Counted from the first letter of the stretch, positions 6,620 through 47,051 are shown. The stretch: DNA of 64,000 nt from Deltaproteobacteria bacterium (GCA_012522415.1 JAAYKM010000051.1:9371-73370), one strand, 5' to 3'. A program made the numbers and translations. Notes: generated from the sequence alone by a model not told the origin.

Positions 6620-9600
6620 TTACAATTCAAGTTGCTCGAATTCCCAGTTCACCTGGGCACTCAGATAATCGGCCCCGTTCGTATAACGGATCTCCCCATC
6701 CGCAAGGGGGGCGGGACGAACCACACCCTGTTTGGCCGTCCTCAGACTGATGAAACGGGCACGAAGCGCCATTCTCAGTTTTTCCGTCTTACCGACTTCG
6801 GGAATCCTGTCGAATATGGTTGGATAATCCGCCTTCAGAACCTGGGCAAAGCGGTTCAGGCGACGTTCACCGGACAAAAATGTCCCGGCCCTTTCCCCGG
6901 AAACCTTTAGGGGGAGTATCAGGTCCGCTTTTTCCACGGTCGGCGTCAGGAACGCGTCAGCCACCACGATGAAATCCGCTTTACCGACAACTTCATCTGC
7001 AACTTTCCCGCTCACCGCACAGCCGACGGGATCCTCTCCCAGGATGAACAAGCCTCTTCGGGCCGCTATATCCTCGGCAAAGCCCATTTCCAGAAGACCC
7101 TGGGCGTTTGGCGTCAAAGGCAGGCCGAGAACCGGACAACCCTTTAACACCGCAAGATTCGCCGCCCACCGTGCCGTGTTGCCCCCAGCCCTGCCGGAAA
7201 TGACGATAACAGGATTTTGTGCCCCGTTCAGGGCCGACAGCAGATCGTCATCCTCTTCGCAGGCGGCCACCTTGAGTCCTTTGAACAGCCCCTTCGTCTC
7301 CGCAGTCTTGACGGATTTCGCAACCGTTTTACAGACACCGGCCAGTGTCGCCGCGGGCGAATGGCTGACGTCGAAGATGTCGAAAGCATGATGCAGCGTC
7401 CTCGGGGCTTCCATCCCCAGACCATACAGGGTAGCGCCGTTCTTTTTCGCGCCGCGGATTTTGACACCGAGAACCGTCATCATGTCTTCATCGTCGAAAC
7501 CAACCGCAAGAACCATGTCGGCCGCATCCACCACATTATAACTCCAGGGTGAGCCGACCGTGCCAAACGTTTCGTTGATCGCCTCACCAACCTTGAGGGA
7601 GTCGGAGGAGAAAGAGGATTTCAACCCTTCCGGCATGTTTTTATCAACGAAGACATCGAGCTGAGCCAACTCCTCCAAGGTCAGCCGACCTCCCGCATAT
7701 ATCCCCCAGTCTTTACCCGGTATGCGGCCCACACTACCCACAAGAATTTTGTGTGCTTCCGTCCAGGAGATGGGTTTCAGGATATCCCCGTCCCGTTTCA
7801 TCGGTTCCGTAATCCGGGGCAGGTTGTTTATATAGCGGGTACCGTAACGCCCGTACCTGCACAGGAGACCGTTATTCGGATCGCGTTCCGGTGCCTTCAC
7901 AGAGACAAGGCGGCCGTTCACCGTGGCCAGATTGAGATGACAACCGAATCCCCCGAAGGTGCAGACACCCGGCATCTCGATCGCATCCTCCGGGACCGTC
8001 TTGGTACCGGGGAACCTTTCATCGAGCGATCCCGTGGGGCAGTTCTGTACACAGGTACCGCAAGACTCGCAGTCCGTCTCCTGCAAGGCGACCCCGAACG
8101 AAGGCTGAACCGTCGTCACGTAACCGCGGTCGACGAAACCCCAGGCTCCAACATGCCTCAGTTCATCGCAAGCCCGTACACAGGCACCGCACAGGATGCA
8201 TTTGTTCTGATCTTTCATAATGAAAGGATGCCTCAAGTCCGGTTCGAATCGAATTTCTCCTTTCGTTTTCAGCGCTGTCGGTTCCGCGTCGACGACCTTG
8301 CCGATCTGCCGCAGTTCGCAGTCATACTGGGAGAAACACCCGCATTCCAGGCATCGACCGGCTTCCCGGCGCAATTCCCCTTCAGCAAAACCCAGCTCGC
8401 ATTCCTTGAAATCCTTGATACGCTCTTTGGGATCAACCATGGGCATCTCGGCACGCGGTTCAGCAGGATAACGGTTCTTCCACTCCTCTTCGAGCGGTCT
8501 GAGATCTCCCAAGGATTTTCCGCGCTGAACCGAGTAGACGCCGGGAATGGGCGTCAAATCCCGTCCTTTCAAAAAACGGTTGATCTGGGTGGCCGCATTG
8601 CGCCCGTCGGCGATACTCTCGACCACCGTGCAGGGGCCCCTCATGGCATCACCGCCGGCGAACACCTCCGGAATATCCGTCTGGAAAGTGTCCTCATTGA
8701 CCACAAAGGTCGACCATCTGGTCGTCCGGACCTCGCAATCGGCGCCGATACAGGCGACATCCGGTTCCTGGCCGATCGCCATGATGATCGTATCCGCCTG
8801 GAGCATGAATTCCGACCCCTCGATGACGACCGGGCTGCGCCGGCCCGATGCATCGGGTTCACCCAGTTCCATGCGAACGGATTCAATGGATTCCATTCTC
8901 TTCTTCCCGTGAATCCTAACCGGATTGGTGAGAAAGTGAAAGCGCACGCCTTCCTCTTCCGCATCGTGCACTTCAATGGGATCGGCCGGCATTTCCGCAC
9001 GGCTTCTCCGATAAACGATATAGCAGTTTTTCGCACCCAGACGCAGAGACGTCCGAACGGCATCGATAGCCGTATTTCCACCGCCCACGACCACCACCGT
9101 TTCGCCTAGGTCAAATTGCTTGCCGAGTTTCACATCCCGCAGAAAGTCGATCCCCTGATAGACCCCTTCGAGTTCCTCGCCGGGAATTCCCATGGACTTG
9201 CTTACATGGGCGCCGACGGCCAGGAAGACCGCATCAAAGGATCGCCGCAGACCATCGATTGTCACATCCTTGCCCAATTCCGTGTTGTAGATGAATTCCA
9301 CGCCCAGAGACTCGATTTCCGCGATTTCCGCATCCAGCTCATTTTGGGGCAGGCGGTAATCGGGGATGCCGTACCGGGTCATGCCGCCCGCTTTCGGCAG
9401 TTTTTCGATGATCATGCACTGATGTCCCTGCTGGGCCAGGTAATAGGCACAGGACATCCCGGCCGGCCCGGCGCCGACGATGGCCACGGTCTTACCGCTT
9501 GACGGAGCGACCGGTGGGTTGTAGCGGGTACCCCTTTCGAAATTCCTGTCCGAGATGAATCGCTTGATGGACTTGATCGAAACCGTTTCATCCACCAGAT

Positions 9601-10069
9601 TGCGGCGGCATTCCTTCTGACATGGAGCGGGACAGACCCGGCCCAGGATACCGGGAAAGGGGACCTTCTCCTTGATGAGCTTTTCCGCGTCGTGGTATTC
9701 GCCGTTGGCGGCCAGTCCCACATAACCCTGGATATCAATGCCCGCTGGACAGGTCATGTTGCACGGGGCCACACAATCCGCAAAATGATTGGAAAAGAGC
9801 AGTTCTATGTCGAGTTTTCGAAGACTCTGGATCAGTTCGGTCTCCGTATTGATTGTGATACCGTCAAAAACCGGCGCCGCACAGGCCACCACGGGATATC
9901 TCGCGTTTTTCTGTTCGACAAGACAGACCCGGCAGCTTCCGAAAGGGTCGATCTGAGCGCGCTCACAGAGAACGGGAATGCCGATTCCGTTTCGTTTGGC
10001 CACTTCGCGAATGGTTTCACCTTGTCTCGCTTCATATTCTCTACCGTTTATTCTAACTTTGATCGCCAT
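6620..10069 (-). CDS. Chimeric FeS flavoprotein: NuoG/FdhA-type 2Fe-2S N-terminus, GltD/NfnB-like NAD(P)H module, 4Fe-4S domains, and a cofactor-less-looking molybdopterin-oxidoreductase-like domain (StnC/SfrAB-like)
   Basis: 1149 aa with an AGGAGG SD. Motifs in order: GSCRVCLVE (2Fe-2S fold); CVAPCNMTCPAG and CPAPCQKEC (GltD N-terminal clusters); VAIVGAGPAGMSCAYYL, VVVVGGGNTAIDAVRT and FAGGDAMRG (FAD/NAD(P)H folds); CILCGACVRAC and CESCGTCVQNCP (ferredoxin motifs). The MopB-like region then opens with a degenerate cluster motif, CTFGGFGC. Confidence 0.85.
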   Translation of the reverse strand: MAIKVRINGREYEARQGETIREVAKRNGIGIPVLCERAQIDPFGSCRVCLVEQKNARYPVVACAAPVFDGITINTETELIQSLRKLDIELLFSNHFADCVAPCNMTCPAGIDIQGYVGLAANGEYHDAEKLIKEKVPFPGILGRVCPAPCQKECRRNLVDETVSIKSIKRFISDRNFERGTRYNPPVAPSSGKTVAIVGAGPAGMSCAYYLAQQGHQCMIIEKLPKAGGMTRYGIPDYRLPQNELDAEIAEIESLGVEFIYNTELGKDVTIDGLRRSFDAVFLAVGAHVSKSMGIPGEELEGVYQGIDFLRDVKLGKQFDLGETVVVVGGGNTAIDAVRTSLRLGAKNCYIVYRRSRAEMPADPIEVHDAEEEGVRFHFLTNPVRIHGKKRMESIESVRMELGEPDASGRRSPVVIEGSEFMLQADTIIMAIGQEPDVACIGADCEVRTTRWSTFVVNEDTFQTDIPEVFAGGDAMRGPCTVVESIADGRNAATQINRFLKGRDLTPIPGVYSVQRGKSLGDLRPLEEEWKNRYPAEPRAEMPMVDPKERIKDFKECELGFAEGELRREAGRCLECGCFSQYDCELRQIGKVVDAEPTALKTKGEIRFEPDLRHPFIMKDQNKCILCGACVRACDELRHVGAWGFVDRGYVTTVQPSFGVALQETDCESCGTCVQNCPTGSLDERFPGTKTVPEDAIEMPGVCTFGGFGCHLNLATVNGRLVSVKAPERDPNNGLLCRYGRYGTRYINNLPRITEPMKRDGDILKPISWTEAHKILVGSVGRIPGKDWGIYAGGRLTLEELAQLDVFVDKNMPEGLKSSFSSDSLKVGEAINETFGTVGSPWSYNVVDAADMVLAVGFDDEDMMTVLGVKIRGAKKNGATLYGLGMEAPRTLHHAFDIFDVSHSPAATLAGVCKTVAKSVKTAETKGLFKGLKVAACEEDDDLLSALNGAQNPVIVISGRAGGNTARWAANLAVLKGCPVLGLPLTPNAQGLLEMGFAEDIAARRGLFILGEDPVGCAVSGKVADEVVGKADFIVVADAFLTPTVEKADLILPLKVSGERAGTFLSGERRLNRFAQVLKADYPTIFDRIPEVGKTEKLRMALRARFISLRTAKQGVVRPAPLADGEIRYTNGADYLSAQVNWEFEQLEL

Positions 10070-10077
10070 AATTCCTC

Positions 10078-11841
10078 CTATTCGACAATGATCGCGTCGA
10101 ATTTACATGCGTCCTTGCAGAAGCCACAACGGGTGCATAATTCATCGTCGATTTGGTGAACCTGCTTGCGTTCACCGGTTGCGGCACCGACGGGACACGT
10201 CTTCGCACAGAGTGTGCAGCCAGTACATTTATCGGCCACCACCCGGTAAGTGATCAGGGCCTTGCATTTTTTGGCCGGGCATTTCTTCTCGCGGATATGG
10301 GCTTCGTATTCGTCCCGGAAATAACGCAGTGTGGTCAGAACCGGGTTCGGAGCGGTCTGACCCAGACCGCAGAGCGATCCCTTGATGATGGCGTCACAGA
10401 GCTTCTGAAGCAGGGGGATATCCTCCTCAGTGCCCTCTCCCGCTGTAATCCTCTCGAGGATTTCAAGCATCCGTTTTGTACCGACGCGACAGAAGGTGCA
10501 TTTGCCGCAGGACTCCTCGACCGTAAAGGAGAGGAAATAACGGGCAATGTCGACCATGCAGGTGCCCTGATCCATAAAGACCATACCGCCAGAACCGACA
10601 ATGGCCCCGGTCGCGGTAATATTTTCGTAATCGATCGGCGTATCATGAAGATGAGAGGGAATACATCCGCCCGAAGGCCCGCCCATCTGGACGGCCTTGC
10701 ACTTGCCGTTGTTGATGATGCCGCCGCCGATATCGTTGACGATTTCGTTGATGGTTATCCCCATCGGCACCTCAATCATTCCCCCGCGATTGATCTTGCC
10801 GGCGAGAGCGAACACCTTGGTTCCCTTCGACATGTCTGTGCCGTACTTGGAAAAGGCGGCTCCCCCCTCCCTGATGATGTAGGGGATGTTGGCGTAAGTT
10901 TCGACGTTGTTGTTGTTCGTGGGTTTCCCCCAGATACCCTGCGTCGCCGGGAAAGGTGGGCGGGTGCGGGGCATGCCCCGTTTCCCTTCGATGGACGCGA
11001 TCAGGGCCGTTTCCTCCCCGCAGCCAAACGCGCCGGCTCCCTCGATGACATGGAGGGTAAAGCTGAAGTCGGTGCCCAAAATATTTTTCCCCGAATAGCC
11101 TCTCGCCTCCGCCTGATTGATGGCCAGGCGAAGCCTCTTCACAGCCAGCGGATATTCGGCTCTGACGTAGAAGAACCCAACCTGGGCGCCCACCGCATAG
11201 GCACCGATGGTCATCCCCTCGATCACGCCGTGGGGATCGCCTTCCAGGGTGGAGCGGTCCATAAAGGCACCGGGGTCCCCTTCATCGCCGTTGCAGATCA
11301 TATATTTTTCCTCGCCCGGGGCATCCTTTGCGAACTGCCATTTCATTCCGCAGGAAAAACCTGCTCCTCCACGCCCCCGGAGTCCGGAAGCACGAACCTG
11401 ATCGATAACATCCTGACGGTCCATGGTCTTCAAAACTTTCTCCAGGGCCCGGTAACCACCGGCCGCAACGTAGTCATCGACGTTTTCCGGATCGATGACA
11501 CCGATATTCTTGGTGGCCAACTTGACCTGCTTGTCCTGATAGGATGATTGCGTCGTCGGGTGATCGGGGTGAAGGATGATCCAGTCTTCAAGGTGTGTCC
11601 CTTTAGCCAGAGCATCAATGAATTTTTGAACCTTGTCAGCCGTCAGATTACCATAGGTGTATACTTTCTCTTCCTCGATCACATCGATAATCGGTTCCAG
11701 ATAGCACATACCGTTACAGCCTGTTTTCCTGATCTCAAAATCACTGTTCCCGTCAAGCAATTCATGTAGCTTGTTCAGGGTTTCTTCCGCTCCTGCGGCA
11801 ATCCCGCAGGAATTGTATCCAATACGGAGGATTTTCATCAT
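10078..11841 (-). CDS. NuoF/HydB-like NADH-binding FMN FeS flavoprotein subunit
   Basis: 587 aa with GRGGAGFSCGMKW, CNGDEGDPGAFMDR and SCGKCTFCRVG (N3 cluster). The C-terminus has 2x[4Fe-4S] motifs CTGCTLCAKTCP and CTRCGFCKDAC. There is a thioredoxin-like N-terminal domain. Confidence 0.9.
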   Translation of the reverse strand: MMKILRIGYNSCGIAAGAEETLNKLHELLDGNSDFEIRKTGCNGMCYLEPIIDVIEEEKVYTYGNLTADKVQKFIDALAKGTHLEDWIILHPDHPTTQSSYQDKQVKLATKNIGVIDPENVDDYVAAGGYRALEKVLKTMDRQDVIDQVRASGLRGRGGAGFSCGMKWQFAKDAPGEEKYMICNGDEGDPGAFMDRSTLEGDPHGVIEGMTIGAYAVGAQVGFFYVRAEYPLAVKRLRLAINQAEARGYSGKNILGTDFSFTLHVIEGAGAFGCGEETALIASIEGKRGMPRTRPPFPATQGIWGKPTNNNNVETYANIPYIIREGGAAFSKYGTDMSKGTKVFALAGKINRGGMIEVPMGITINEIVNDIGGGIINNGKCKAVQMGGPSGGCIPSHLHDTPIDYENITATGAIVGSGGMVFMDQGTCMVDIARYFLSFTVEESCGKCTFCRVGTKRMLEILERITAGEGTEEDIPLLQKLCDAIIKGSLCGLGQTAPNPVLTTLRYFRDEYEAHIREKKCPAKKCKALITYRVVADKCTGCTLCAKTCPVGAATGERKQVHQIDDELCTRCGFCKDACKFDAIIVE

Positions 11842-12320
11842 TCAGCCTCCTTCTTCTTGTACTCTTTCATAACTTTGCGAACCTTGTCCGTGGAGAGTTT
11901 CCCATAGACTTTTTCCCCAACCATGATGACGGGGGCCAGGCTACAGCATCCCAGACAAGCCACCGACTCGACGGTAAACAGCATATCCGGCGTCGTCTCT
12001 CCCGACTTGACATTCAGCGCACCCTCAATGGCTTCGGTAAGGCCGTCGGCATTCTGAACATGACAGGCCGTCCCATGACAGACACGAACCAGGTTTTTTC
12101 CGACGGGCGTCAGGCGGAATTGGGCGTAAAAAGTGACAATTCCATAAATGCTGGCGGTTGAAACTCCCATACTTCTGGCAACACGTTCCAGAGCTTCCTT
12201 TTCCAGGTAGCCCTTGTGCGCCTGAACCTGCTGAAGCACGGTGATGAGCGTTCCCTTATGGCCCCTGTAACGCTCCAGTACCTCATCGACATAACTAAAA
12301 TCCAGTTGTTCCATTTTCAA
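11838..12320 (-). CDS. NuoE/HydC-like thioredoxin-fold 2Fe-2S subunit
   Basis: 160 aa with CHGTACHV ... CLGCCSLAPV. It overlaps the NuoF-like gene by 4 nt. Confidence 0.9.
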   Translation of the reverse strand: MKMEQLDFSYVDEVLERYRGHKGTLITVLQQVQAHKGYLEKEALERVARSMGVSTASIYGIVTFYAQFRLTPVGKNLVRVCHGTACHVQNADGLTEAIEGALNVKSGETTPDMLFTVESVACLGCCSLAPVIMVGEKVYGKLSTDKVRKVMKEYKKKEAE

Positions 12321-12708: not shown

Positions 12709-14718
12709 CTATACCAGACGCTCCGCCACAATCTCCGCAATATCCTTTACGACAATCTGTCCGGAAGCATTTTCGTCCTTCAGTCCGTCCTCAAACATGG
12801 TCATACAGTACGGACACGCCACACTGATCACTTCCGCATCCGTTGCCAGGGCATCTTTTGTCCGTTCGACATAAATTCGGCTTCCCTGATTTTCCTCGAG
12901 CCACATGCGGCCGCCGCCTGCGCCACAACAGAAACTCTCCGAACCGTGGCGGCTCATTTCTACAGGCGCCTTTCCGCCGCAGACCCTGGCGATGATCGCT
13001 CTCGGCTCCTTGTAGATATTGTTATAACGTCCGAGATAGCATGGATCATGGTACGTGACGCGCATCCCCGTTTCCCCTTTCAGTTTGAGTACGCCGCTCT
13101 GCAGGAGCTTGTGAATGAGTTGGGAATGGTGGATCACCTCGAAATCGACGCCGTACTGCCCGTAATCGTTTTTCAATGTACTGAAACAATGAGGACAGTA
13201 GGTGATGATTTTTTTGATCCCGTACTTTTTGAAGATTTCTATATTGTCCCTCACCAGGATATCGAAAACATATTCGTTCCCCAGTCTCCGCAGAGAATCG
13301 CCACAGCATTTCTCCTCATTACCCAGCACACCCCAGGAAAGACGGGCGGCGTTGAGGATCTTCGCCACAGCCGTCGTCACCATCCTGCCCCTTGGATCAA
13401 AGGATCCCGAACAGCCCACATAGAAGAGATACTCGACTTGGGCGCCATGTGAAAGGATCTTGATGTCCCGGTCATGGACCCACTTTTCCCGTTCATTCGG
13501 TGCGATTCCCCAGGGATTGAATCGCTGTTCCGAATTTTCGAAAAAAGCGATCAATTCTTCCGGGAAGGCAGCCTTTTCCACAACCAGATGACGCCGGAGC
13601 CCAATCAGTTTCGGTACATGTTCGATAAAAACAGGACACTGCTGCATGCAGGCCCCGCATGTCGTACAGGACCAGATGGCATCAACCGAAATGCTTTCGT
13701 CACGCGTATTGATAAGCGGAACAGCCATCTCGGCCGAATCGGGAGCGGAAACAAGCGTGTCCGGGGGTCTGGAAGCAAGCAGAATCCGGCCATTGGCCAA
13801 GAGATTGAGTTTTCCCTCATGAACAACCTCCTTGGGATTCAGGGGTTTGTGCGTGTTATGGGCGGGGCAGGCCGCCTGGCACCGGCCGCACTCCGTGCAG
13901 GACAGGAAATCCAGCAGGTCCTTCCATGAATATTGGACTATCTTTGAAACGCCAAAGCGTTCCCCGCGACGAAAGATCATCCGGGGAACGGTATTTACAA
14001 ATGAGGCATTCCTGAAAAAGATATTCGGTATCGCCGTCAGGATATGCAAATGTTTGCTGTAGGGCAGATAATTGAGGAAAAACAAGAGTACCAGGGCATG
14101 AGTCCACCAGAATATCCGTCCCAGGGCATGGCCCCCTTCCTGGGTCAGTCCCCGGAAGAGAGGCGCCAGGAGAGAAGAAACCGGCATGGTCCAGCGGGAA
14201 ATCGCTTTTCCGTTCAACCGGATTTCGCTGGCATGATAACCGAAGTAGGCAACTATTAGAACGGCAACCAGACCCAAAATCACAAAGGCATCCACTGTCT
14301 GGTCGATATAGGCGGGACGGAAGAACATCCGCCGAATAACGGCGTTGAAAACGCATACCAGCACCACAACCGACATGATATCGGCCATGAAGAGCATGGC
14401 CCCATAGGGGATATCTCCCAAAAACCAGAAGGAGAAGCGGGGGAAGACACCTGAGACCAGAAACTCCACATTCATCAGAAGGAGAAACATGAAACCCCAG
14501 AACAGAAGCAGGTGGTTCACGCCGAATCCTTCACTTACAACACGAACCTGGGCGAAGCCATACACCAGCATACCCCGGAATCGCGACCAGAGACGATCAA
14601 AACGATTCTCACTCCGCCCGAGGCAGATCATGGCAAAGAGGCGGTACAGGTTGCGCAAAAAGAAACCCACCGCACCGACAAGAATGAACAGGAACAACAA
14701 GGATTCGACGGAACTCAA
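12709..14718 (-). CDS. Membrane FeS oxidoreductase: N-terminal NarI/DsrM-like polytopic domain, 2x[4Fe-4S], and two CCG (HdrD/GlpC-like) domains; putative Etf:menaquinone oxidoreductase
   Basis: 669 aa. The first ~230 aa are hydrophobic helices carrying His residues (NHLLLFWG, WWTHALV, SKHLHILTA). These are followed by CTECGRCQAACP and CTTCGACMQQCP, then the Cys-rich CCGDS, CPHCF, DPCYLGR, FCCGAGGG and CPYCMTM. TTG start with GGAG SD. Confidence 0.85.
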   Translation of the reverse strand: MSSVESLLFLFILVGAVGFFLRNLYRLFAMICLGRSENRFDRLWSRFRGMLVYGFAQVRVVSEGFGVNHLLLFWGFMFLLLMNVEFLVSGVFPRFSFWFLGDIPYGAMLFMADIMSVVVLVCVFNAVIRRMFFRPAYIDQTVDAFVILGLVAVLIVAYFGYHASEIRLNGKAISRWTMPVSSLLAPLFRGLTQEGGHALGRIFWWTHALVLLFFLNYLPYSKHLHILTAIPNIFFRNASFVNTVPRMIFRRGERFGVSKIVQYSWKDLLDFLSCTECGRCQAACPAHNTHKPLNPKEVVHEGKLNLLANGRILLASRPPDTLVSAPDSAEMAVPLINTRDESISVDAIWSCTTCGACMQQCPVFIEHVPKLIGLRRHLVVEKAAFPEELIAFFENSEQRFNPWGIAPNEREKWVHDRDIKILSHGAQVEYLFYVGCSGSFDPRGRMVTTAVAKILNAARLSWGVLGNEEKCCGDSLRRLGNEYVFDILVRDNIEIFKKYGIKKIITYCPHCFSTLKNDYGQYGVDFEVIHHSQLIHKLLQSGVLKLKGETGMRVTYHDPCYLGRYNNIYKEPRAIIARVCGGKAPVEMSRHGSESFCCGAGGGRMWLEENQGSRIYVERTKDALATDAEVISVACPYCMTMFEDGLKDENASGQIVVKDIAEIVAERLV

Positions 14719-14779
14719 GGGAACTCCTTTCTATTTACCGGTAAAGCCTCATGACGATTTTCACGACACCTTTTGTCTT

Positions 14780-16177
14780 CTACGGACCTGTAACCTGTCC
14801 GGGCTGTTTTTCCAGATCCAGCCAGAACAGATTCGAGATGTCCGATGAGACCGGGTGTGCCCAGCTCGTGTGCAATTTATCGATCAGAGCGGGGAGGATT
14901 TCGAAAACATCCCCGACGATGCCCAAATGGGCAACCTGAAAGATCGGCGCATTGCGGTCTGTGTTTATCGCAATGATATGCTCCGAATCCTGCATCCCAA
15001 CCAGGTGTTGAATCGCCCCGGAAATCGCGCAGGCAATGTAGAGTTTGGGACGAACGGTTTTCCCCGTCTGGCCGACTTGACGTTCATGGGGCATCCAGCC
15101 GGCATCCACAGCGCTGCGCGAAGAGGCCACCACACCCCCCAGAAGATCTGCCAGATCGTACAGTATCTTGAAATTCTCCGCGTTCTGAAAACCCCGGCCA
15201 CCGCTGACAATCACATTGGCCACCGAAATATCGATGGCGCCCTCAGTTTTCAGGGGAATGATCTCCAGCACGGCGCTGTTCAGAAGATCGGTCTGCAACC
15301 CGAAGGGTTCCGTCATGACAGGCCCCGTTCGACCGGGGTGTACATCCGGCTTCGGCATCACGTGGGGACGGACGGAAGCCATCTGGGGGCGTGCCGTTTC
15401 CGTTAGAATCGTCGCCATGATGTTGCCCCCGAATGCTGGGCGCGTCTGCTCCAGAAGCCGGCGGCTCTTGTCGATCGCCAGACCCGTACAGTCCGCGGTC
15501 AGTCCCGTCTGCAACTCCGTGGCAATGGCTCCCGCCAGATCACGCCCCAACCCCGTTGCCCCAATCAATATCACTTCCGGTTTGTATTTCCGAATCAGGG
15601 TCAAGGCCCCGTGCAGATAGGGCTCCGTACGATAGTGTTCCAGAAGCGGATCCTCTGTCATAAAAACAACGTCGGCCCCGTACGCAAAAGCCTCATCCGC
15701 CAGATGTTTGATGTTCGAACCGAGAACGAACGCAGACAATTGGACCTGCAAGTCCCTGGCAAGGGTCCGACCCGCGCCGAGAAGTTCCCAGGACACCGAA
15801 TGGGCCTTGCCTTCGGCCTGTTCCACAAACACCCAGACACCTCTCCAGGCATCGAGAGACGATTCCGTTTTCTCCGTCATCGATGCCGAGGCATCCTCGT
15901 CTTCAACCGGCTCACTGTGCTCAGCACTCCCCTTGTCGAGTTCTTCCAGCAACCTCTGCTCCTCCGGAGTAAAAGCCATCCGAAGCGCCTCCGCCGGGCA
16001 AACCTTGACACATTTCGCGCAGCCGATACACTTGTCCGTCAGAATGATGGGCTCATCCTTTTCGTTCATTTCTATGGCATCCACCTTGCAGGCCGCTTGG
16101 CAGCGGGCTCCGCATGCAATACACTTTCCGGGGATCAATTCAGCCTTGCCGCGGGGTCTCTTGACTTTTTTTTCCAT
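14780..16177 (-). CDS. Electron transfer flavoprotein large subunit (EtfA/FixB type) with a fused N-terminal 2x[4Fe-4S] ferredoxin domain
   Basis: Ferredoxin domain motifs are CIACGARCQAAC (CX2CX3CX3C) and CIGCAKCVKVCP, followed by an acidic linker. The Etf alpha fold follows with TRPAFGGNIMATI and SGAIQHLVGM. The ATG at 16177 is preceded by GGAG; the track start at 16183 is a GTG. Confidence 0.85.
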   Translation of the reverse strand: MEKKVKRPRGKAELIPGKCIACGARCQAACKVDAIEMNEKDEPIILTDKCIGCAKCVKVCPAEALRMAFTPEEQRLLEELDKGSAEHSEPVEDEDASASMTEKTESSLDAWRGVWVFVEQAEGKAHSVSWELLGAGRTLARDLQVQLSAFVLGSNIKHLADEAFAYGADVVFMTEDPLLEHYRTEPYLHGALTLIRKYKPEVILIGATGLGRDLAGAIATELQTGLTADCTGLAIDKSRRLLEQTRPAFGGNIMATILTETARPQMASVRPHVMPKPDVHPGRTGPVMTEPFGLQTDLLNSAVLEIIPLKTEGAIDISVANVIVSGGRGFQNAENFKILYDLADLLGGVVASSRSAVDAGWMPHERQVGQTGKTVRPKLYIACAISGAIQHLVGMQDSEHIIAINTDRNAPIFQVAHLGIVGDVFEILPALIDKLHTSWAHPVSSDISNLFWLDLEKQPGQVTGP

Positions 16178-16264
16178 CGTCACTCCTAAAAAATCGGCCC
16201 ATGAGGGGACATAGGCAGGATTTGCAAACCGGCAAATCCATGTTCAACAGTTCTCTTCGCTCCG

Positions 16265-17083
16265 TCAGTGCCCCAACGATATGAAATCCCAGTCCAGAAG
16301 CTTTTTGAAAACCATGTCCACCGCCCTGTCCATCTTTTCTCCCTCCCCATCGACGATCTCACCCTTGTCCCGCTGCGGGGCAAAAATCTTGCGCACCTGT
16401 GTCGGGGATCCTCTCAAGCCGATCATATCCGGATCCAGTTTCAGAACGTCATTCGTCCAGATCGGCACTTTTGCTTCCAGCGCCTCCAGACGCCCCGGGA
16501 CCGTTGGGTAACGGGGCACATTCACTTCGCGAACCACCGTAATCAATACAGGCAGCCTCGACTCGACGATCTCGTGCATTTCCTCGAGAACGCGCCGAAC
16601 AACAATGATCCGTTTTTCCTTGTGAATCTCCAGAATACGGTCCACCAACGTCAGTTGTGAATATTTCAGCCGACACGCAATTCCCGGTCCCACCTGGGCC
16701 GTGTCACCGTCGATCGTCTGTTTACCGCATAAAACGATATCCACCGGCTTTTGCCCGTCGAGCCTGCGGATCGCTTCCGACAAAACCAGACTTGTCGCCA
16801 ATGTATCGGCGCCCCCGAAGGCACGATCACTGAGCAATACGGCATCGTCTACACCAAGGGCCATGGCCTTTTTCAGAACCGCGTCCGCCGCGGGGGGACC
16901 CATCGAAATGGCTGTCACGCAGCCGCCATATTTTTCTTTCAAACGCAAGGCCTCTTCCACCGCATGATTGTCAAAAGGATTCGTAATAAACGGCACCCCT
17001 TCGCGGACCAGGGTGTTCGTTACAGGGTCGATGATCACCTGTGTTGTGTCCGGTACCATTTTCACACAGACAACATAATGCAT
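16265..17083 (-). CDS. Electron transfer flavoprotein small subunit (EtfB/FixA), bifurcating-type sequence signature
   Basis: 272 aa with VCVKMVPDT, DRAFGGADTLATS, CGKQTIDGDTAQVGP and GSPTQV. From memory these match Acidaminococcus/Clostridium bifurcating EtfB rather than canonical ETF-beta. Confidence 0.85.
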   Translation of the reverse strand: MHYVVCVKMVPDTTQVIIDPVTNTLVREGVPFITNPFDNHAVEEALRLKEKYGGCVTAISMGPPAADAVLKKAMALGVDDAVLLSDRAFGGADTLATSLVLSEAIRRLDGQKPVDIVLCGKQTIDGDTAQVGPGIACRLKYSQLTLVDRILEIHKEKRIIVVRRVLEEMHEIVESRLPVLITVVREVNVPRYPTVPGRLEALEAKVPIWTNDVLKLDPDMIGLRGSPTQVRKIFAPQRDKGEIVDGEGEKMDRAVDMVFKKLLDWDFISLGH

Positions 17084-17260: not shown

Positions 17261-17290
17261 AAAAAGGCCGGGATCGTTCGATCCCGGCCT
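17261..17290 (-). terminator. Rho-independent terminator of ppsA
   Basis: aggccgggatcg / cgatcccggcct palindrome (17265-17290). On the minus strand it is followed by TTTTT (plus-strand A-run 17261-17265). Confidence 0.8.
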
Positions 17291-17323: not shown

Positions 17324-19735
17324 CTAGGCTTTCCCTAATTTTCGTTCCGCATCCAATATTTCCGCGGTGGTCTTGAGTACCGTATCGGAGTTGAGGGATA
17401 TGCTGTTGATGCCGTATTCGACCAGAAGTCTCGCCACTTCGGGGTAATCACTGGGTGCCTGACCACAGATACCGATTTTTTTACCGATTTTTCTTGCCTT
17501 GCTTATGGCCATCCTGATCAGTTCCTGCACGGCGGCGTCCCGTTCGTCGAAAATGTGGGCCACTTCTGCGGAATCACGGTCCAACCCCAACGTCAGCTGG
17601 GTCAGGTCATTGGAGCCAATGGAGAAGCCGTCGAATATTTCCCCGAATTCTTCAAGCATGATCACGTTGCTGGGAATCTCCACCATCATATAAATTTCAA
17701 GACCATTCTCGCCCTGGACCAGGCCCCGGTCAGCCATGGTTCGGACAACCTTCCCGGCTTCCGTCAACGTCCGGCAAAAAGGGATCATCAACTTGACATT
17801 GGTGAGCCCCATGACGTCCCGCACACGCTTCATGGCATCACATTCCATAAAGAAACCATCTCTATAGCGGTCATCGTAGTAGCGGGAAGCACCCCGGAAA
17901 CCGATCATCGGGTTTTCCTCGACGGGTTCAAAGAAAGAACCACCGACGAGGTTATAATATTCGTTGCTCTTGAAATCACTCATACGCACGATCACGTCAT
18001 TCGGGTAGAAGGCGGCACCGATCTTGGCCACCCCTTGCGCCAGACGGTCGATAAAAAACTCTCTCCGGTCCGCATATCCTCTCGTAATTCTGTCAATTTC
18101 CGCACGAACAGCTTCGTCCGTCACCTGGTTGAAATTGACGAGGGCCATGGGATGAACACTGATGAAATGGCTGATGATGAACTCCAGGCGAGCCAGACCT
18201 ATGCCGTCATTTGGTATGGAGGCAAGGGAAAAAGCATTTTCCGGATTGCCGACATTCATCATGATCTTCGTGGATGGGCGCTTGAGCGTGGTGACGTTAA
18301 CCCGGTTCACATCATATTTCAGAATGCCTTCGTATACCCTTCCCACTTCACCCTCGGCACAGGAAACGGTCACCTCCTTGACATTTTTCAAGACCTCCGT
18401 ACCGTTTTCCGTACCCACAATACAGGGGACCCCAAGTTCACGGCTTACAATCGCCGCATGGCAGGTTCTGCCTCCCCGATCGGTCACAATGGCTGCGGCG
18501 ATCTTCATGATGGGCTCCCAGTCAGGATCGGTCATTTCAGTCACCAGGACCTCGCCCGCTTTGAAAGTCTTGATCTCCTTTACCGATTCGATGATGTGCA
18601 CCGGCCCTGCGCCAATCCTGGAGCCGACACTGGTTCCGAGCAGAATGGGCGTTTTTTCTTCACAGAGAACATAATTTTCGAGGACACTCCCGTCCTTTTG
18701 GGATTGCACGGTTTCAGGCCTCGCCTGCAGGATGAAAAGTTCCTGGGTGATACCGTCCTTGCCCCACTCGATATCCATGGGTTTGAAATAACCCGCCTTT
18801 TCTGAATAATGTCCTTCAATGATGGCGGTCCATTGGCCCAGTTTCAGGACCTCGTCATCGCTCAGGCAAAAATTGTGGCGATCCTCTTCGGGCACCGGGA
18901 CAATCTCCGTTGCGCTCTCCTTTTTGGAATCGGAGTAGATCATCTTGATCTCCTTGGTCCCCAGTTTCTTCTGGATAATGGAACGGAAACCTTCCTTCAG
19001 GGTCGGTTTAAAGACATAAAATTCATCAGGATTGACGATCCCCTGAACGACGGTCTCCCCCAAACCATAGGAAGCGGTAACCAGAATTGCCTCCTTGAAA
19101 CCCGATTCGGTGTCGATAGAAAAGATAACCCCCGAGGCCCCCTGATCCGAGCGAACCATCTTTTGTACCCCAATGGATAAAGCGATAGTCAGATGATCGA
19201 AACCCTTATCCACCCGGTAGGAAATCGCCCGATCCGTAAACAGGGAAGCGAAACACCTCTTGCACGCATCAATCAGGGCGTCCTCGCCCCGGACGTTCAG
19301 GAATGTCTCCTGCTGGCCGGCAAAACTCGCGTCGGGCAGATCCTCCGCCGTGGCGGAACTGCGGACGGCGACATCCGTATCCGGTCCGTACTCTTCACAC
19401 AGGCGCTTATATCCCTTCAAAACTTCATTACGGAGATCATCGGGAAATTTCGCGCTATAAATCAGGGACCGGATCTGCTCGCCTTTACTTCGCAAATTAT
19501 CCAGGTCGTGTGTGTCCAGATCCTTCAGAACATTTTTGATTTCCTTGCCGATTCCCGCGGATTCCAGCAGATATCGATAGGCCGCGGCGGTTACGGCAAA
19601 TCCATCGGGTACGCTCACCCCCTTGGAAGTCAACTCTCTTCTCATCTCGCCGAGGGATGCATTTTTGCCCCCTACCTGTGGAATATCCTTCAATTCTATC
19701 TCATCGAACCACAAAATCAGTTGCTCATCCATCAT
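17324..19735 (-). CDS. ppsA: Phosphoenolpyruvate synthase (pyruvate, water dikinase)
   Basis: GGKNASLGEM, the phospho-His motif TDRGGRTCHAAIVSRELGVPCIVG, and the C-terminal PEP-utilising domain GICGQAPSD. The ATG at 19735 has a GGAGG SD 6 nt upstream. The track start at 19819 adds 28 non-conserved aa. Confidence 0.95.
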   Translation of the reverse strand: MMDEQLILWFDEIELKDIPQVGGKNASLGEMRRELTSKGVSVPDGFAVTAAAYRYLLESAGIGKEIKNVLKDLDTHDLDNLRSKGEQIRSLIYSAKFPDDLRNEVLKGYKRLCEEYGPDTDVAVRSSATAEDLPDASFAGQQETFLNVRGEDALIDACKRCFASLFTDRAISYRVDKGFDHLTIALSIGVQKMVRSDQGASGVIFSIDTESGFKEAILVTASYGLGETVVQGIVNPDEFYVFKPTLKEGFRSIIQKKLGTKEIKMIYSDSKKESATEIVPVPEEDRHNFCLSDDEVLKLGQWTAIIEGHYSEKAGYFKPMDIEWGKDGITQELFILQARPETVQSQKDGSVLENYVLCEEKTPILLGTSVGSRIGAGPVHIIESVKEIKTFKAGEVLVTEMTDPDWEPIMKIAAAIVTDRGGRTCHAAIVSRELGVPCIVGTENGTEVLKNVKEVTVSCAEGEVGRVYEGILKYDVNRVNVTTLKRPSTKIMMNVGNPENAFSLASIPNDGIGLARLEFIISHFISVHPMALVNFNQVTDEAVRAEIDRITRGYADRREFFIDRLAQGVAKIGAAFYPNDVIVRMSDFKSNEYYNLVGGSFFEPVEENPMIGFRGASRYYDDRYRDGFFMECDAMKRVRDVMGLTNVKLMIPFCRTLTEAGKVVRTMADRGLVQGENGLEIYMMVEIPSNVIMLEEFGEIFDGFSIGSNDLTQLTLGLDRDSAEVAHIFDERDAAVQELIRMAISKARKIGKKIGICGQAPSDYPEVARLLVEYGINSISLNSDTVLKTTAEILDAERKLGKA

Positions 19736-19873
19736 CGGTTTCCTCCTAAGCTGGTTGGAATCGGATCTCCATGCATTTTGGTGATCCCGTGTATCAGTTT
19801 TACCCACAACAGTCAACAAAATATCCTCTAAATGGCGGCACCAATTAACAAATTACTCTTTACCTTCAGTGGC

Positions 19874-20728
19874 TTACATCCTTTGTGAAAAATCCAGACG
19901 TACGGGCAGACTCCCGGACACTTCAAGAACAGGTCCGTTCATCATGAACTGTACACCGCCGGCCTCCACCCTGGTTTCCTCACCGTCCATAACCCATTCA
20001 TACAGTTTTTTCGCGTCATTCAGAACCGGTTCGGCAGGAACCTTGTAGACACGGTTCTGCATTTCTTCATCAAACAGCCCGACGCAACCGTGAGATGCAG
20101 GCCGCCCCGGCATATCCCGAGCGTGAATCCAGTATCCCGTATCATCGGGAGAGACATAAAAACGGATGGCATAGTCCATGGGATATTTTGATTTGCCGTC
20201 AGCCGTATCATAAAGAGACGATCGATGGTGCCTGTCGAGTGCGTCCACACGGAAAATACCGGGAGGCGTTTCATGTTTCGCCTTTCCTGTAACGGCGGGC
20301 ATGGAAAACTTCTGTTTCCCGTATTCGTATGCCCCGATCCACTGTTCCGTCACATCAATAAGGATGTATTTTCGAAAGGGCTTCGCTTTTCCGTACATTT
20401 CCGGCAGCGGTGTGTAATGTTCAATGTCTTCGAGATTGAGAGGCACCTTGATGGTCATGCCCGGATAGGCGTGACGGCGGTCAAGGCGGTTGAAACGGGC
20501 CACCCAAACCCATCGGTTACCAAAGAGCCGCTCCAGGCTTTCGTCGGGGAGGATGAAATGGGGACGCCAGGGGATATTCTTCAAACTCGGATAAACAATG
20601 CGTCCCAGGTCTTCCATGGCCGAATCCTCGGGAAGCGGGCCGGGAAGAGAGATAAGCCGCGGGTTGTATGCAATGATGACGCACATGAGGAGGATAGCCA
20701 GGGTCAAACGAACGGACAATTGTGGCAT
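19874..20728 (-). CDS. L,D-transpeptidase (YkuD/ErfK family) with an N-terminal membrane anchor
   Basis: 284 aa. The catalytic motif is WIHARDMPGRPASHGCVGL. The N-terminus is hydrophobic (LTLAILLMCVIIAY). Confidence 0.8.
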   Translation of the reverse strand: MPQLSVRLTLAILLMCVIIAYNPRLISLPGPLPEDSAMEDLGRIVYPSLKNIPWRPHFILPDESLERLFGNRWVWVARFNRLDRRHAYPGMTIKVPLNLEDIEHYTPLPEMYGKAKPFRKYILIDVTEQWIGAYEYGKQKFSMPAVTGKAKHETPPGIFRVDALDRHHRSSLYDTADGKSKYPMDYAIRFYVSPDDTGYWIHARDMPGRPASHGCVGLFDEEMQNRVYKVPAEPVLNDAKKLYEWVMDGEETRVEAGGVQFMMNGPVLEVSGSLPVRLDFSQRM

Positions 20729-21172
20729 GCTTATCTTTCAACAGAAATTTTGTTGAGCTTATACCATTTCCCCTCCCCGGATTCAATGGTTTTGGCATGA
20801 TGTGCCTGCCGATCTGCCCTTACAAAACAGGCCGTCAGCCCCCGATCATGACGACCTGCAACGAATGAAGGGATACCTGCCGAATTTTGGCGACGCCTAC
20901 CCGTCGTTTCAGACCCGACAACGGTCAGCACACGCCGGGGCACCGAAAAACAAGGCAAGGGGAGATCACAAGAATTTTTGGCAATTGATCCCACATGGGC
21001 ATCCATGATAGAGGTGCCGTATGGGTTAAAAGATATGTTATGAATTGACTGGAAACGAAAACAAAACAGGCGGAATATCTGTCGAAAAAATACCTTGAAT
21101 TTGATAGGTGCCTCTCCGGTCGGCATCGGACGCATCCCACGGAAGATCAGGAGGATTGAAGAGGATAAAATT

Positions 21173-41016: not shown

Positions 41017-41131
41017 GCCCCTCTCAAGTCGTATATAGGCCCGGATTCAGGAAAAAGCACGATCGCATCGGGGAATTCCCAGGTATCGGTTTTTCCTTCA
41101 TCCGTTATGGGACGCGACATGTGAGATCAGG

Positions 41132-42544: not shown

Positions 42545-42774
42545 CTTCCTTCCCCCTCTCTTGATTTGATCATGGAACAAGAATCTGCGCTCCCGCATCA
42601 CCGTTTCGCCCGGCAAGCGTACAACCTGGCACCGTTTCAGAAAAGAAGACCCCCGTCCCCCTGTCGGCGCTACATGGCATGAAGGGATGGTTGCTGAAAA
42701 CTTGAGATTCCTTAACACGGGGAGATTTCGGAATGCAAGGGGGAATCCTTTTCCTCCCCCAAGGGGATACGGAC

Positions 42775-45008: not shown

Positions 45009-45156
45009 AACGCCTCCGTGAGTATATATACTAAAGCAGACCGGTCAGCTCGCTTTTCCGAGAAAACCCCGCCCATCGCTAGGGACAGGCGGGGTGCCCA
45101 GGTATCGTCACACACCTCCTCTGAAAAAGCAGGAAGCAAAATCCATGTCCTCCGCT

Positions 45157-46134: not shown

Positions 46135-46161
46135 TTTTCTTACCTCCGTATATCCTTTTCA

Positions 46162-46932: not shown

Positions 46933-47001
46933 TTCATCCTCCTCAATACCATGTACGCCGGGTGCAAGGTCGTCCTCACCCCTGGTACACTCTTAGTTAA
47001 G

Positions 47002-47037
47002 TTTCCGGTTCCCCGCGGAAAACCGGGGAACCGGAAA
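47002..47037. other. 14-bp perfect inverted repeat between acs and etfB
   Basis: tttccggttccccg (47002-47015) / cggggaaccggaaa (47024-47037) with an 8-nt loop. No U-tract follows on the coding (minus) strand, so it is not a canonical terminator. It could be an RNA processing or stability element, or a protein binding site. Confidence 0.5.
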
Positions 47038-47051
47038 AACACTTTCAACGA

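Follow-up and report, generated by a model that had tools for sequence, protein, structure and literature searches.

What does a bifurcating-type Etf, with a ferredoxin domain fused to its large subunit, do beside a membrane-bound FeS/cytochrome-b protein? The question is raised by three genes in a window of 64,000 nucleotides, which is the whole stretch of DNA analysed here. All three open reading frames are present on the minus strand at the coordinates originally predicted, and their products, EtfB2, Fd-EtfA2 and the membrane protein EMO2, are 272, 465 and 669 aa in the public entry for this contig (GCA_034002525.1). The ATG start of Fd-etfA2 at 16177 matches the public gene call. etfB2, Fd-etfA2 and the gene for the 669-aa membrane FeS/cytochrome-b protein form a single operon, which is listed here with its surroundings:

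16265–17083, minus strand: etfB2, small Etf subunit, 272 aa, group 2 (bifurcating type); Pfam ETF
14780–16177, minus strand: Fd-etfA2, large Etf subunit, 465 aa, with an N-terminal 2x[4Fe-4S] domain; Pfam Fer4_21/Fer4_7, ETF and ETF_alpha
12709–14718, minus strand: EMO2, 669-aa ETF:menaquinone-oxidoreductase-like membrane protein with cytochrome b, HdrC-like and HdrB/CCG-like parts
17261–17289, minus strand: hairpin (GGCCGGGATCGAACGATCCCGGCC) followed by TTTTT, 3′ of the upstream PEP synthase gene; read from the sequence
6620–12320, minus strand: Stn/NfnABC (Bfu-type) NADH/ferredoxin:NADP transhydrogenase genes; from Pfam, NCBIfam and PDB matches
42840–46932, minus strand: comparison locus with etfB1 (46162–46932), etfA1 (45157–46134) and EMO1 (42840–45008), a Syntrophus-type non-bifurcating ETF-EMO

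Since the hairpin and T-run follow the PEP synthase gene, etfB2 is taken as the first gene of the operon. Downstream of EMO2 are the transhydrogenase genes (NuoE-like, NuoF-like and a GltD-NuoG fusion), whose products match PDB entries 9BOV, 8OH5 and 9N5U with 661–829 bits. No terminator-like site was found on the minus strand in the 388-bp gap that separates them from EMO2, and they are possibly linked to the trio in function. The 64-kb window as a whole is rich in β-oxidation genes, including thiolase, acyl-CoA synthetases and FadL.

Group 2, the bifurcating type of Etf, was reportedly defined by Garcia Costas in 2017 by the motifs DRxFxGxDTxAT and IDGDTxQVG (a nucleotide site of the FAD type, not the AMP type). 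EtfB2 had been predicted to carry bifurcating-type signatures, and a pattern scan confirmed both of these:

16793–16828, minus strand: DRAFGGADTLAT motif, EtfB2 residues 86–97; pattern match
16688–16714, minus strand: IDGDTAQVG motif, EtfB2 residues 124–132; pattern match and alignment

The former aligns with DRTFAGADTLAT in T. maritima and with DRAFGGADTWAT/DRAFGGADTLAT in CarD and A. fermentans, and both have aligned counterparts in 7KOE_A, 6FAH_B and 4KPU_B. Further group-2 motifs are described in the literature: the small subunit carries RxGV and GxxSPTxV and the large one RPxFGG, the last of which includes an Arg essential for bifurcation in T. maritima (PMC10734219). EtfB2 has REGV at residue 27 and GSPTQV at residue 225, while Fd-EtfA2 has RPAFGG at residue 246, with an Arg that is invariant across phyla among the homologues compared. 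The pair thus contains all group-2 motifs listed in that paper as well as DRxFxGxDTxAT and IDGDTxQVG. The second Etf pair of the window (45157–46932) is canonical and non-bifurcating, as proposed originally, and the pattern scan found no bifurcating-type motif in it: EtfB1 lacks the DRAFGGADTLAT motif and reads IDDDSGQVG at the position of IDGDTAQVG, resembling IDDDCNQTG of the human protein.

Pairwise scores point the same way. The best PDB matches of EtfB2 are 7KOE_A (224 bits), CarD (6FAH_B, 222), 4KPU_B (221), 5OL2_B (212) and LctB (7QH2_B, 178), compared to 69–77 bits for human and Paracoccus ETF and 41–77 bits for non-bifurcating Etfs overall. For Fd-EtfA2, CarE (6FAH_A) scores highest at 376 bits, followed by 7KOE_B at 327, with LctC (7QH2_A) at 276; the range is 273–376 bits for bifurcating Etfs and 108–152 bits for non-bifurcating EtfA. 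Against the five solved bifurcating Etfs, the two subunits score 100–220 bits above the non-bifurcating ones. Judged by motifs and pairwise bit scores, EtfB2/Fd-EtfA2 is of the bifurcating (group 2) type, and the original assignment of the pair to this type is upheld.

The N-terminal extension of Fd-EtfA2 had been likened to that of CarE-type Etfs, with two [4Fe-4S] clusters and an unusual spacing in the first motif. A Fer4 dicluster was indeed found, CarE is the top PDB match, and the spacing is confirmed at C19–C30:

15929–16150, minus strand: ferredoxin-like domain, Fd-EtfA2 residues ~10–83; Fer4 families at residues 19–69
16088–16123, minus strand: first cluster motif CIACGARCQAAC, CX2CX3CX3C, residues 19–30; pattern match
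15998–16030, minus strand: second cluster motif CIGCAKCVKVC, canonical, residues 50–60; alignment and pattern match

All eight Cys are invariant in 22 homologues. The CX2CX3CX3C spacing occurs in 41 of 43 EMO-linked Fd-EtfA genes, and two canonical CX2CX2CX3C motifs in 32 of the 38 Fd-EtfA that have no EMO neighbor; by these motif counts, the extra-residue first motif is specific to the EMO-linked Fd-EtfA clade. In the predicted model, the domain has a pLDDT of 71–81 and is followed by an acidic linker of about 25 residues, modeled as disordered (pLDDT 28–44 at residues 84–106); with this linker and a pTM of 0.54, the models do not define where the domain lies relative to the flavins. In CarE and LctC, the N-terminal ferredoxin domain connects the bifurcating FAD to external ferredoxin by passing electrons between them (PMC9232219), and a role as ferredoxin adaptor or relay is also described for CarE-type EtfA in PMC5861303. 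By analogy, the domain of Fd-EtfA2 is probably a relay of the CarE/LctC type on the low-potential branch.

EMO2 consists of three parts:

14029–14718, minus strand: membrane domain, residues ~1–230, with five TM helices and short connecting helices (AlphaFold model)
[quoted passage not shown]
12712–13446, minus strand: HdrB-like CCG pair (non-cubane cluster), ten Cys and H510

The original description of EMO2 as a protein with a NarI-like N-terminus and HdrD-like CCG domains held for the latter, since Pfam finds two CCG domains and a Fer4 dicluster (2x[4Fe-4S]). The Pfam NarI model does not match the EMO2 N-terminus and hits only EMO1; the likeness is backed instead by homology to M. smegmatis EtfD (9OJN_A, E = 4.5e-114 over residues 38–663), by the modeled helices (3–32, 67–91, 102–133, 142–168 and 193–217) and by invariant His. 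Candidate heme ligands are H69 and H225, present in 34/34 EMO2-type sequences, and H207, present in 33/34; they align with EMO1 H90, H234 and H252, taken as SaEMO H87, H233 and H251. The AlphaFold model (pLDDT 70) has 9OJN as its top Foldseek match (TM 0.78/0.72), followed by HdrB chains. All eight cubane Cys are invariant in 34 sequences, with Pfam Fer4_8/9/10 at residues 269–364. In the CCG pair, nine Cys (C436, C471, C472, C508, C511, C560, C597, C635 and C638) are found in 34/34 and C598 in 33/34. From its full-length homology, three His, 8 + 10 Cys and adjacency to etfAB, EMO2 is a member of the EMO/EtfD class. Proteins of this class had been proposed to pass Etf electrons to menaquinone, and this is now shown experimentally for EMO, whose non-cubane clusters receive electrons from the ETF flavin and which reduces (methyl)menaquinone (bioRxiv 10.64898/2026.08.18.745454).

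EMO2 is not a close copy of the syntroph enzyme, being 37–39% identical to EMO1 and 33% to MsEMO. EMO1, a protein of 722 aa encoded at 42840–45008 alongside the second Etf pair and absent from the original prediction, keeps the residues aligned with SaEMO E22, A101, H109, E187 and H534-G535, its counterparts including E23, H112, E190 and H562-G563 when numbering is mapped by spacing. Like the S. aciditrophicus ETF-EMO locus (PMC5606693), the EMO1 locus has a gene for an AMP-forming acetyl-CoA synthetase upstream. By the same spacing-based mapping, not a direct alignment to the SaEMO sequence, the EMO2 clade lacks the distal-quinone-site residues of SaEMO, with S/T in place of E22, L87 in place of H109 and H/N162 in place of E187, and EMO2 has H510-C511 instead of H534-G535; it is thus outside the twin-heme Syntrophus subtype with its pmf-driven distal MMK site, which is defined by E22, H109, E187 and H534-G535. 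At the position of C511, EMO1 and, by alignment, SaEMO have Gly, which as G535 of SaEMO gives a [4Fe:5S] cluster, and MsEMO has Thr at that of C472 (CTG). Two additional residues, H223 and N83, are invariant in EMO2.

The pairing of a bifurcating-type, ferredoxin-fused Etf with such a membrane partner had been presented as unusual. It turned out to be a conserved three-gene unit found in many phyla. Among genome loci with enough downstream sequence, 41 have an EtfA of at least 53% identity, and in 38 of these an EMO gene lies directly downstream; of the 28 with a more distant EtfA, none has one there (Fisher p = 2.7e-16), an association far beyond chance. The three loci without EMO appear, from the locus table, to be from Bacillota (L062, L063 and L080); there, the match begins at query residue 104–107, past the ferredoxin domain. 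Where a close Fd-EtfA is present, the EMO trio is found in 38/38 loci, and contigs anchored by EMO2 have it in 3/3. Intergenic gaps in etfB–Fd-etfA–EMO range from -17 to a few hundred bp. The hosts of the 38 loci are Thermodesulfobacteriota, Geobacteraceae, Desulfuromonas, Dehalococcoidales, Aminicenantes, Deferribacterales and Methanoperedenaceae. What flanks the trio differs between loci, and in none of those with inspected flanks was an acyl-CoA dehydrogenase gene found beside it, leaving EMO as the obvious high-potential partner. Ferredoxin/NADH-dependent transhydrogenases of two unrelated architectures occur nearby: Stn/NfnABC in the window and in locus L010, and NfnAB in L025, L041 and L096.

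The trio was found in G. metallireducens GS-15 (CP000148.1, 749552–753912; EtfB ABB30925.1) and on one contig named G. sulfurreducens. Geobacter trios share gene order and domains with the present one (EtfB 272 aa, Fd-EtfA 438–443 aa, EMO-like protein 658–659 aa), and the G. metallireducens proteins are 58, 60 and 51% identical to EtfB2, Fd-EtfA2 and EMO2, respectively. Unlike Geobacter, the present host is an anaerobic-digester MAG of the Syntrophales with an additional Syntrophus-type ETF-EMO, its transhydrogenase neighbor is Stn/NfnABC rather than NfnAB, and Fd-EtfA2 has a C-terminal tail of ~28 aa. Chan et al. (2017) described GSU2795-2797 of G. sulfurreducens as a “b-type cytochrome-FeS cluster-ETF” with bifurcation signature residues that is essential by Tn-Seq, and read it as a putative confurcation/bifurcation complex (PMC5585712). 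From that description and the G. sulfurreducens-named contig, this appears to be the same cluster. The same kind of complex has been proposed for Desulfatiglandales MAGs (PMC13343851); a biochemical characterization of any trio member was not found in the literature searched. The trio is therefore widespread, already flagged in Geobacter and not peculiar to the present genome.

Three known systems resemble parts of the trio. EMO/EtfD of S. aciditrophicus (SYN_02636-02638) and M. smegmatis (9OJN) has the same three domains, His, cluster ligands and adjacency to etfAB, but its partner Etf is non-bifurcating, as had been stated for syntrophs and as is the case in Syntrophus (PMC8805022), whereas that of EMO2 is bifurcating-type and ferredoxin-fused. 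Among solved structures, the EtfA closest to Fd-EtfA2 are those of CarCDE of A. woodii and Ldh-EtfAB (LctBCD), which likewise carry a ferredoxin domain at the N-terminus. However, their high-potential branch ends at a soluble CoA- or lactate-dehydrogenase, not at a membrane quinone reductase, and their first cluster motif is one residue shorter; no soluble dehydrogenase partner of the CarC, Bcd or Ldh type was found in the operon or in the related loci inspected.

FixABCX/EtfABCX (A. vinelandii; T. maritima, 7KOE; P. aerophilum) shares the group-2 EtfAB and the predicted overall reaction, involving NADH, quinone and ferredoxin or flavodoxin. Genes for FixC/EtfC or a separate FixX/EtfX were found neither in the operon nor in the related loci inspected, which makes the trio Fix-like in its proposed working, not a member of FixABCX. 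Instead of the FixC/EtfC flavoprotein, the trio has an integral membrane protein of an unrelated, cytochrome-b/HdrCB-like kind. The originally suggested likeness to FixABCX holds for the predicted overall reaction and the replacement of FixC by an unrelated quinone module. The accompanying idea that the ferredoxin domain is a fused FixX was rejected as a wrong analogy: the EtfX clusters lie between ET-FAD and the quinone reductase on the high-potential path (PMC10734219), while the CarE-like FeS domain is probably on the low-potential one. EMO would therefore replace FixC and FixX together, with the ferredoxin domain as an extra adaptor.

Gene order, domains, conservation and synteny are what was observed here; that the proteins form a complex, which cofactors they bind, how electrons travel and how energy is coupled are read from these. 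On this basis, the trio probably connects the menaquinone pool with NADH and ferredoxin, and there is a reasonable likelihood that it does so as a membrane-associated complex of a two-FAD bifurcating-type EtfAB and an EMO/EtfD-type quinone reductase. NADH would reduce the bifurcating FAD of EtfB2, from which the first, high-potential electron would reach the shuttle FAD in domain II of EtfA2. This domain would then swing to the CCG (non-cubane cluster) domain of EMO2, handing the electron to a chain of two non-cubane clusters, two cubane [4Fe-4S] clusters and heme(s) b that ends at menaquinone. The low-potential electron of the semiquinone would go to the tethered N-terminal 2x[4Fe-4S] domain of EtfA2 and on to soluble ferredoxin or flavodoxin. 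The net reaction, 2 NADH + 2 Fd(ox) + MK <-> 2 NAD+ + 2 Fd(red) + MKH2, would be the chemistry of FixABCX/EtfABCX with EMO standing for FixC and FixX, and it should be reversible. In an acetate-oxidizing Geobacter or a syntroph, it may run towards NADH from Fd(red) and menaquinol.

A two-FAD Etf with group-2 motifs can nevertheless be non-bifurcating, as is reported for that of C. propionicum (PMC5861303), and the trio could be a plain wire that sends both electrons from NADH or a soluble dehydrogenase to menaquinone, the ferredoxin domain being a relay or vestigial and ferredoxin coupling absent. NADH to MK is exergonic alone, and the EMO family is so far known only alongside non-bifurcating ETFs. 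This reading is nonetheless considered unlikely: a canonical ETF-EMO set that can deliver electrons in the plain way is already encoded in the genome, the eight Cys of the ferredoxin domain and the bifurcation-critical Arg of RPxFGG are invariant across phyla, and the trio persists as a conserved unit of its own near Nfn-type enzymes.

Somewhat less likely still is that Fd-EtfAB2 is of the CarDE/Bcd type and truly serves a soluble acyl-CoA (enoyl-CoA) dehydrogenase encoded elsewhere, with EMO2 as an alternative or overflow outlet. CarE is the closest solved relative of Fd-EtfA2, β-oxidation genes abound in the window, and ETFs often serve several dehydrogenases, but EMO is present in 38/38 loci, no acyl-CoA dehydrogenase gene was seen beside the trio where flanks were inspected, and CX2CX3CX3C sets the EMO-linked clade apart from Fd-EtfA without EMO. 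It is quite improbable that the CCG domain of EMO2 is itself catalytic and HdrD-like, carrying out thiol/disulfide or small-substrate redox chemistry with the Etf and the quinone pool. Unlike SaEMO and MsEMO, EMO2 has the full, (near-)invariant 10-Cys HdrB-type set, and its best partial NCBIfam matches are TfrB and HdrD-like proteins. However, its invariant H510 corresponds, through EMO1 H562, to SaEMO H534, a residue that fills the CoM-binding site there (bioRxiv 10.64898/2026.08.18.745454), its homology to EMO/EtfD is full-length, and there are no linked genes for thiol cofactors.

If the trio does couple NADH, ferredoxin and menaquinone, its high-potential branch would run through a transmembrane heme-b domain, so that bifurcation or confurcation could be modulated by, or feed, the pmf. 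That it represents a third, structurally distinct and pmf-coupled wiring of Etf bifurcation to the quinone pool is a speculative proposal with a low probability. If true, one enzyme would couple NADH, ferredoxin, menaquinone and pmf. In syntrophs, menaquinol electrons from β-oxidation could then be lifted to NADH at the expense of reduced ferredoxin, and in Geobacter, the trio could be the essential enzyme that balances ferredoxin against NAD+ and quinone.

The three genes of the trio (etfB2, Fd-etfA2 and the EMO2 gene) lie close together on one strand of the window, and the original prediction had their coordinates, lengths and quoted motifs right, including the CX2CX3CX3C spacing (C19-C30) in EtfA2. 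EMO stands for ETF:menaquinone oxidoreductase-like membrane protein (EtfD class). The features considered here are as follows:

6620-12320, minus strand: genes for a NuoE-like protein (160 aa), a NuoF-like protein (587 aa) and a 1149-aa fusion protein, 388 bp downstream of the EMO2 gene and on the same strand
12709-14718, minus strand: EMO2 gene (669 aa), 61 bp downstream of Fd-etfA2, with AAAGGAG before the start; Pfam 2x[4Fe-4S] and two CCG domains
14780-16177, minus strand: Fd-etfA2 (465 aa), 87 bp downstream of etfB2; Pfam Fer4 dicluster, ETF and ETF_alpha
16265-17083, minus strand: etfB2 (272 aa); Pfam ETF
17261-17289, minus strand: hairpin and T-run, 3' of the PEP synthase gene, read directly from the sequence
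45157-46134, minus strand: etfA1, without group-2 Etf motifs
46162-46932, minus strand: etfB1, without group-2 Etf motifs; IDDDSGQVG, compare human IDDDCNQTG

The matching public record is a Syntrophales MAG from an anaerobic digester (GCA_034002525.1, contig JAVFAL010000014.1). Public gene calls start Fd-etfA2 at the ATG at 16177; an exact-sequence look-up with the GTG start (16183) gave no match. The host MAG has a classical ETF-EMO set as well as the trio. The 5' side of the trio (17324-23287) carries a PEP synthase/PPDK-like gene, whose 831-aa ORF is annotated publicly as 803 aa, together with genes for a YkuD L,D-transpeptidase and, on the opposite strand, a type III glutamine synthetase; the other contigs of the species (L001-L003) keep this order.

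The Etf pairs were typed by bit-score contrast against solved structures and by the group-2 motifs given in PMC10734219. When all PDB sequences were searched, the best five matches of EtfB2 were the small subunits of five structurally characterised bifurcating Etfs: T. maritima EtfABCX (7KOE, 224 bits), CarD (6FAH, 222), A. fermentans (4KPU, 221), C. difficile (5OL2, 212) and LctB (7QH2, 178), against only 69-77 bits for the human, Paracoccus and Methylophilus ETFs. Fd-EtfA2 behaves similarly, matching CarE (376 bits), 7KOE_B (327), 5OL2_A (313), LctC (276) and 4KPU_A (273) against about 150 for human ETF. All group-2 motifs are present (EtfB2: REGV, GSPTQV; EtfA2: RPAFGG), and T. maritima cannot bifurcate without the Arg of the large-subunit RPxFGG motif (PMC10734219). 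The DRAFGGADTLAT and IDGDTAQVG motifs are both found in the trio's Etf. By sequence, the score contrast and the full motif set support the predicted bifurcating type. All of these motifs are absent from the second pair, whose top matches are human and Paracoccus ETF and which is, as had been proposed, of the canonical non-bifurcating type.

The unusual CX2CX3CX3C first-cluster motif recurs in 41 of 43 EMO-linked Fd-EtfA proteins, which rules out a sequencing error or a one-off, and is a marker of this clade; 32 of the 38 Fd-EtfA proteins without an EMO have two canonical cluster motifs. In CarE and LctC, the N-terminal ferredoxin domain carries electrons between the bifurcating FAD and an external ferredoxin (PMC5861303, PMC9232219). 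In the AlphaFold monomer model of Fd-EtfA2 (pTM 0.54), the linker is disordered, and Foldseek superpositions (rmsd 13-23 A) are uninformative as to where the domain sits relative to the flavins. Fd-EtfA2 also extends at its C-terminus by about 28 aa (SWAHPVSSDISNLFWLDLEKQ..., residues 437-465, window 14780-14866, minus strand), disordered in the model; its two closest aligned relatives share this tail, which the other 19 aligned homologues lack.

Residues 38-663 of EMO2 align with M. smegmatis EtfD (MsEMO; 9OJN_A, E=4.5e-114). The AlphaFold2 model (pLDDT 70) opens with five long helices linked by short ones, as in the topology reported for the S. aciditrophicus EMO (SaEMO; bioRxiv 10.64898/2026.08.18.745454), and Foldseek returns 9OJN first (TM 0.78/0.72), with HdrB chains next. 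Across 34 aligned EMO2-type sequences, the candidate haem ligands H69, H207 and H225 show complete or almost complete conservation. Their counterparts in the paralogue EMO1 are H90, H234 and H252, which were equated with the SaEMO haem ligands H87, H233 and H251 by spacing (the next His lies at +22, and the last two are 18 residues apart). H223, a further invariant His two residues ahead of the proximal haem ligand, is common to the EMO2 clade and MsEMO (SKHLH) and is not found in EMO1.

The eight cubane and ten CCG cysteines of EMO2 are invariant or nearly so (C598 in 33 of 34). With its full CCG set, EMO2 is unlike either solved EMO: Gly takes the place of C511 in SaEMO, resulting in a [4Fe:5S] cluster, and Thr that of C472 in MsEMO, resulting in a [3Fe:4S] cluster. 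SaEMO residues E22, A101, H109 and E187 have been tied to a twin-haem/Ca2+ site and a periplasmic-side quinone site (bioRxiv 10.64898/2026.08.18.745454). EMO1 retains them as E23, A104, H112 and E190, along with an H562-G563 pair, and its locus has an AMP-forming acetyl-CoA synthetase gene upstream (compare PMC5606693), which together identify it as the Syntrophus-type enzyme. In the EMO2 clade, the same positions are S/T, invariant N83, L87 and H/N, and by sequence EMO2 is a separate paralogue with a distal site that is probably built differently. N83 corresponds to the enigmatic A101 that lies close to haem bD2 in SaEMO. The acs-etfB1-etfA1-EMO1 locus (42840-49031, minus strand) mirrors S. 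aciditrophicus SYN_02635-02638, and downstream of it are FadL and two acyl-CoA synthetases (39316-42718).

The original prediction contrasted the pairing of such an Etf with this membrane protein to syntrophs in which the partner is the canonical Etf. One genome per species was scanned with the Fd-EtfA alignment, yielding 80 loci. Among loci with enough downstream sequence, etfB is upstream and an EMO2-type gene immediately downstream in 38 of the 41 whose EtfA is at least 53% identical, whereas none of 28 more distant Fd-EtfA loci (Omnitrophota, Anaerolineae, Desulfosporosinus and others) has such a neighbour (Fisher p=2.7e-16). The three exceptions appear to be Bacillota EtfAs that lack the ferredoxin domain. 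The genes are spaced by -17 to a few hundred bp. Conversely, etfB and Fd-etfA lie upstream of the EMO2 homologue in all three contigs anchored on EMO2. The expected co-occurrence is therefore real, but the pairing is widespread and had been noticed before: Chan et al. (PMC5585712) described GSU2795-2797 of G. sulfurreducens, apparently the same trio, as a putative confurcation/bifurcation complex and found it essential by Tn-Seq. Hosts include Geobacter hydrogenophilus, Geotalea toluenoxydans, Citrifermentans bremense, Desulfuromonas, Oryzomonas, Dehalococcoidales, Aminicenantes, Deferribacterales and two Methanoperedenaceae archaea, which rules out confinement to syntrophs. The trio is also present in G. 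metallireducens GS-15 (CP000148.1 749552-753912; 58/60/51% identity to the window proteins) and on one G. sulfurreducens-named contig (L096). No acyl-CoA dehydrogenase gene is attached to the trio in the inspected loci, and the flanking genes are otherwise unrelated.

Two anomalous loci, which look like frameshifted MAG contigs, were left out. L042 has a short EMO ORF (338 aa, 39% identity). L082 (7965-10004, from a Ca. Anaeroferrophillacea MAG) has one ORF of 679 aa in which Fd-EtfA (query residues 8-353) runs on into the CCG half of EMO (query residues 330-664), and the adjacent etfB seems to be frameshifted; the ORF reflects either an assembly artefact or a genuine fusion or deletion. In two other loci, L016 (5118-6812, uncultured deltaproteobacterium MAG) and L028 (71-970, Geobacteraceae MAG), a second etf set without the ferredoxin domain, 35-37% identical to EtfB1/EtfA1, lies directly upstream of the trio, although L028 shows only an etfA match. 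Here, one EMO might serve two Etfs.

The genes beyond EMO2 look like a Stn/NfnABC (Bfu-family) ferredoxin/NADH:NADP transhydrogenase. The NuoF-like protein ends in a C-terminal 2x[4Fe-4S] domain, the 1149-aa protein combines 2Fe2S, GltD and NuoG/molybdopterin-like parts, and the best PDB matches of the three products are 9BOV, 8OH5 and 9N5U (661-829 bits). A terminator scan found no minus-strand terminator-like site in the 388-bp gap between EMO2 and nuoE, which has one weak promoter-like match. Classical NfnAB-like genes, encoding a DHODB_Fe-S_bind protein and a Fer4_20/Pyr_redox_2 protein, follow the trio in two Desulfuromonadia-type MAG loci (L025, 13063-15314; L041, 11459-13682) and in L096 (10054-11317), with a radical-SAM/SPASM gene in between in L025 and L096. 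Two unrelated ferredoxin/NADH:NADP transhydrogenase architectures thus recur beside the trio, in about five of some 40 distinct loci, in agreement with a possible role in the ferredoxin/NADH economy.

The best-supported model is that the trio is a membrane-bound NADH:ferredoxin/menaquinone oxidoreductase. [quoted passage not shown] The parts had been rightly identified and the proposed function is plausible, but the likening of the fused domain to FixX was mistaken. In EtfABCX, the EtfX clusters sit in the high-potential path (PMC10734219), whereas the CarE/LctC domain serves the bifurcating FAD and ferredoxin. EMO therefore replaces both FixC and FixX. With standard potentials of -320 mV for NADH, -74 mV for MK and about -450 mV for Fd (PMC10734219), the forward direction is thermodynamically possible, and the distance from equilibrium is small enough for reversal; both directions were weighed by Chan et al.

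No biochemical characterisation of any trio was found in the literature searched, and the recent EMO structure papers cover non-bifurcating ETF partners only. A D. multivorans paper, cited in PMC13343851 as demonstrating a bifurcating ETF:quinone complex, proposes only ordinary ETF-to-menaquinone transfer. The trio is another instance, in a Syntrophales MAG, of a recognised kind rather than a new system. What is added is a clade definition (CX2CX3CX3C ferredoxin motif, 10-Cys EMO and altered distal site) and a survey showing strict synteny, with G. metallireducens and G. sulfurreducens as tractable models for an important and testable enzyme class. If the inferred activity is true, the trio would be the main NADH/ferredoxin/menaquinone link in organisms without FixABCX, among them Geobacter, many Thermodesulfobacteriota including syntrophs, Dehalococcoidales and Methanoperedens. 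The way in which these hosts produce or get rid of reduced ferredoxin would then be accounted for, as would the essentiality of the cluster in G. sulfurreducens. Methanogenic digesters would have a ferredoxin-coupled route in addition to the pmf-driven EMO/formate-dehydrogenase redox loop.
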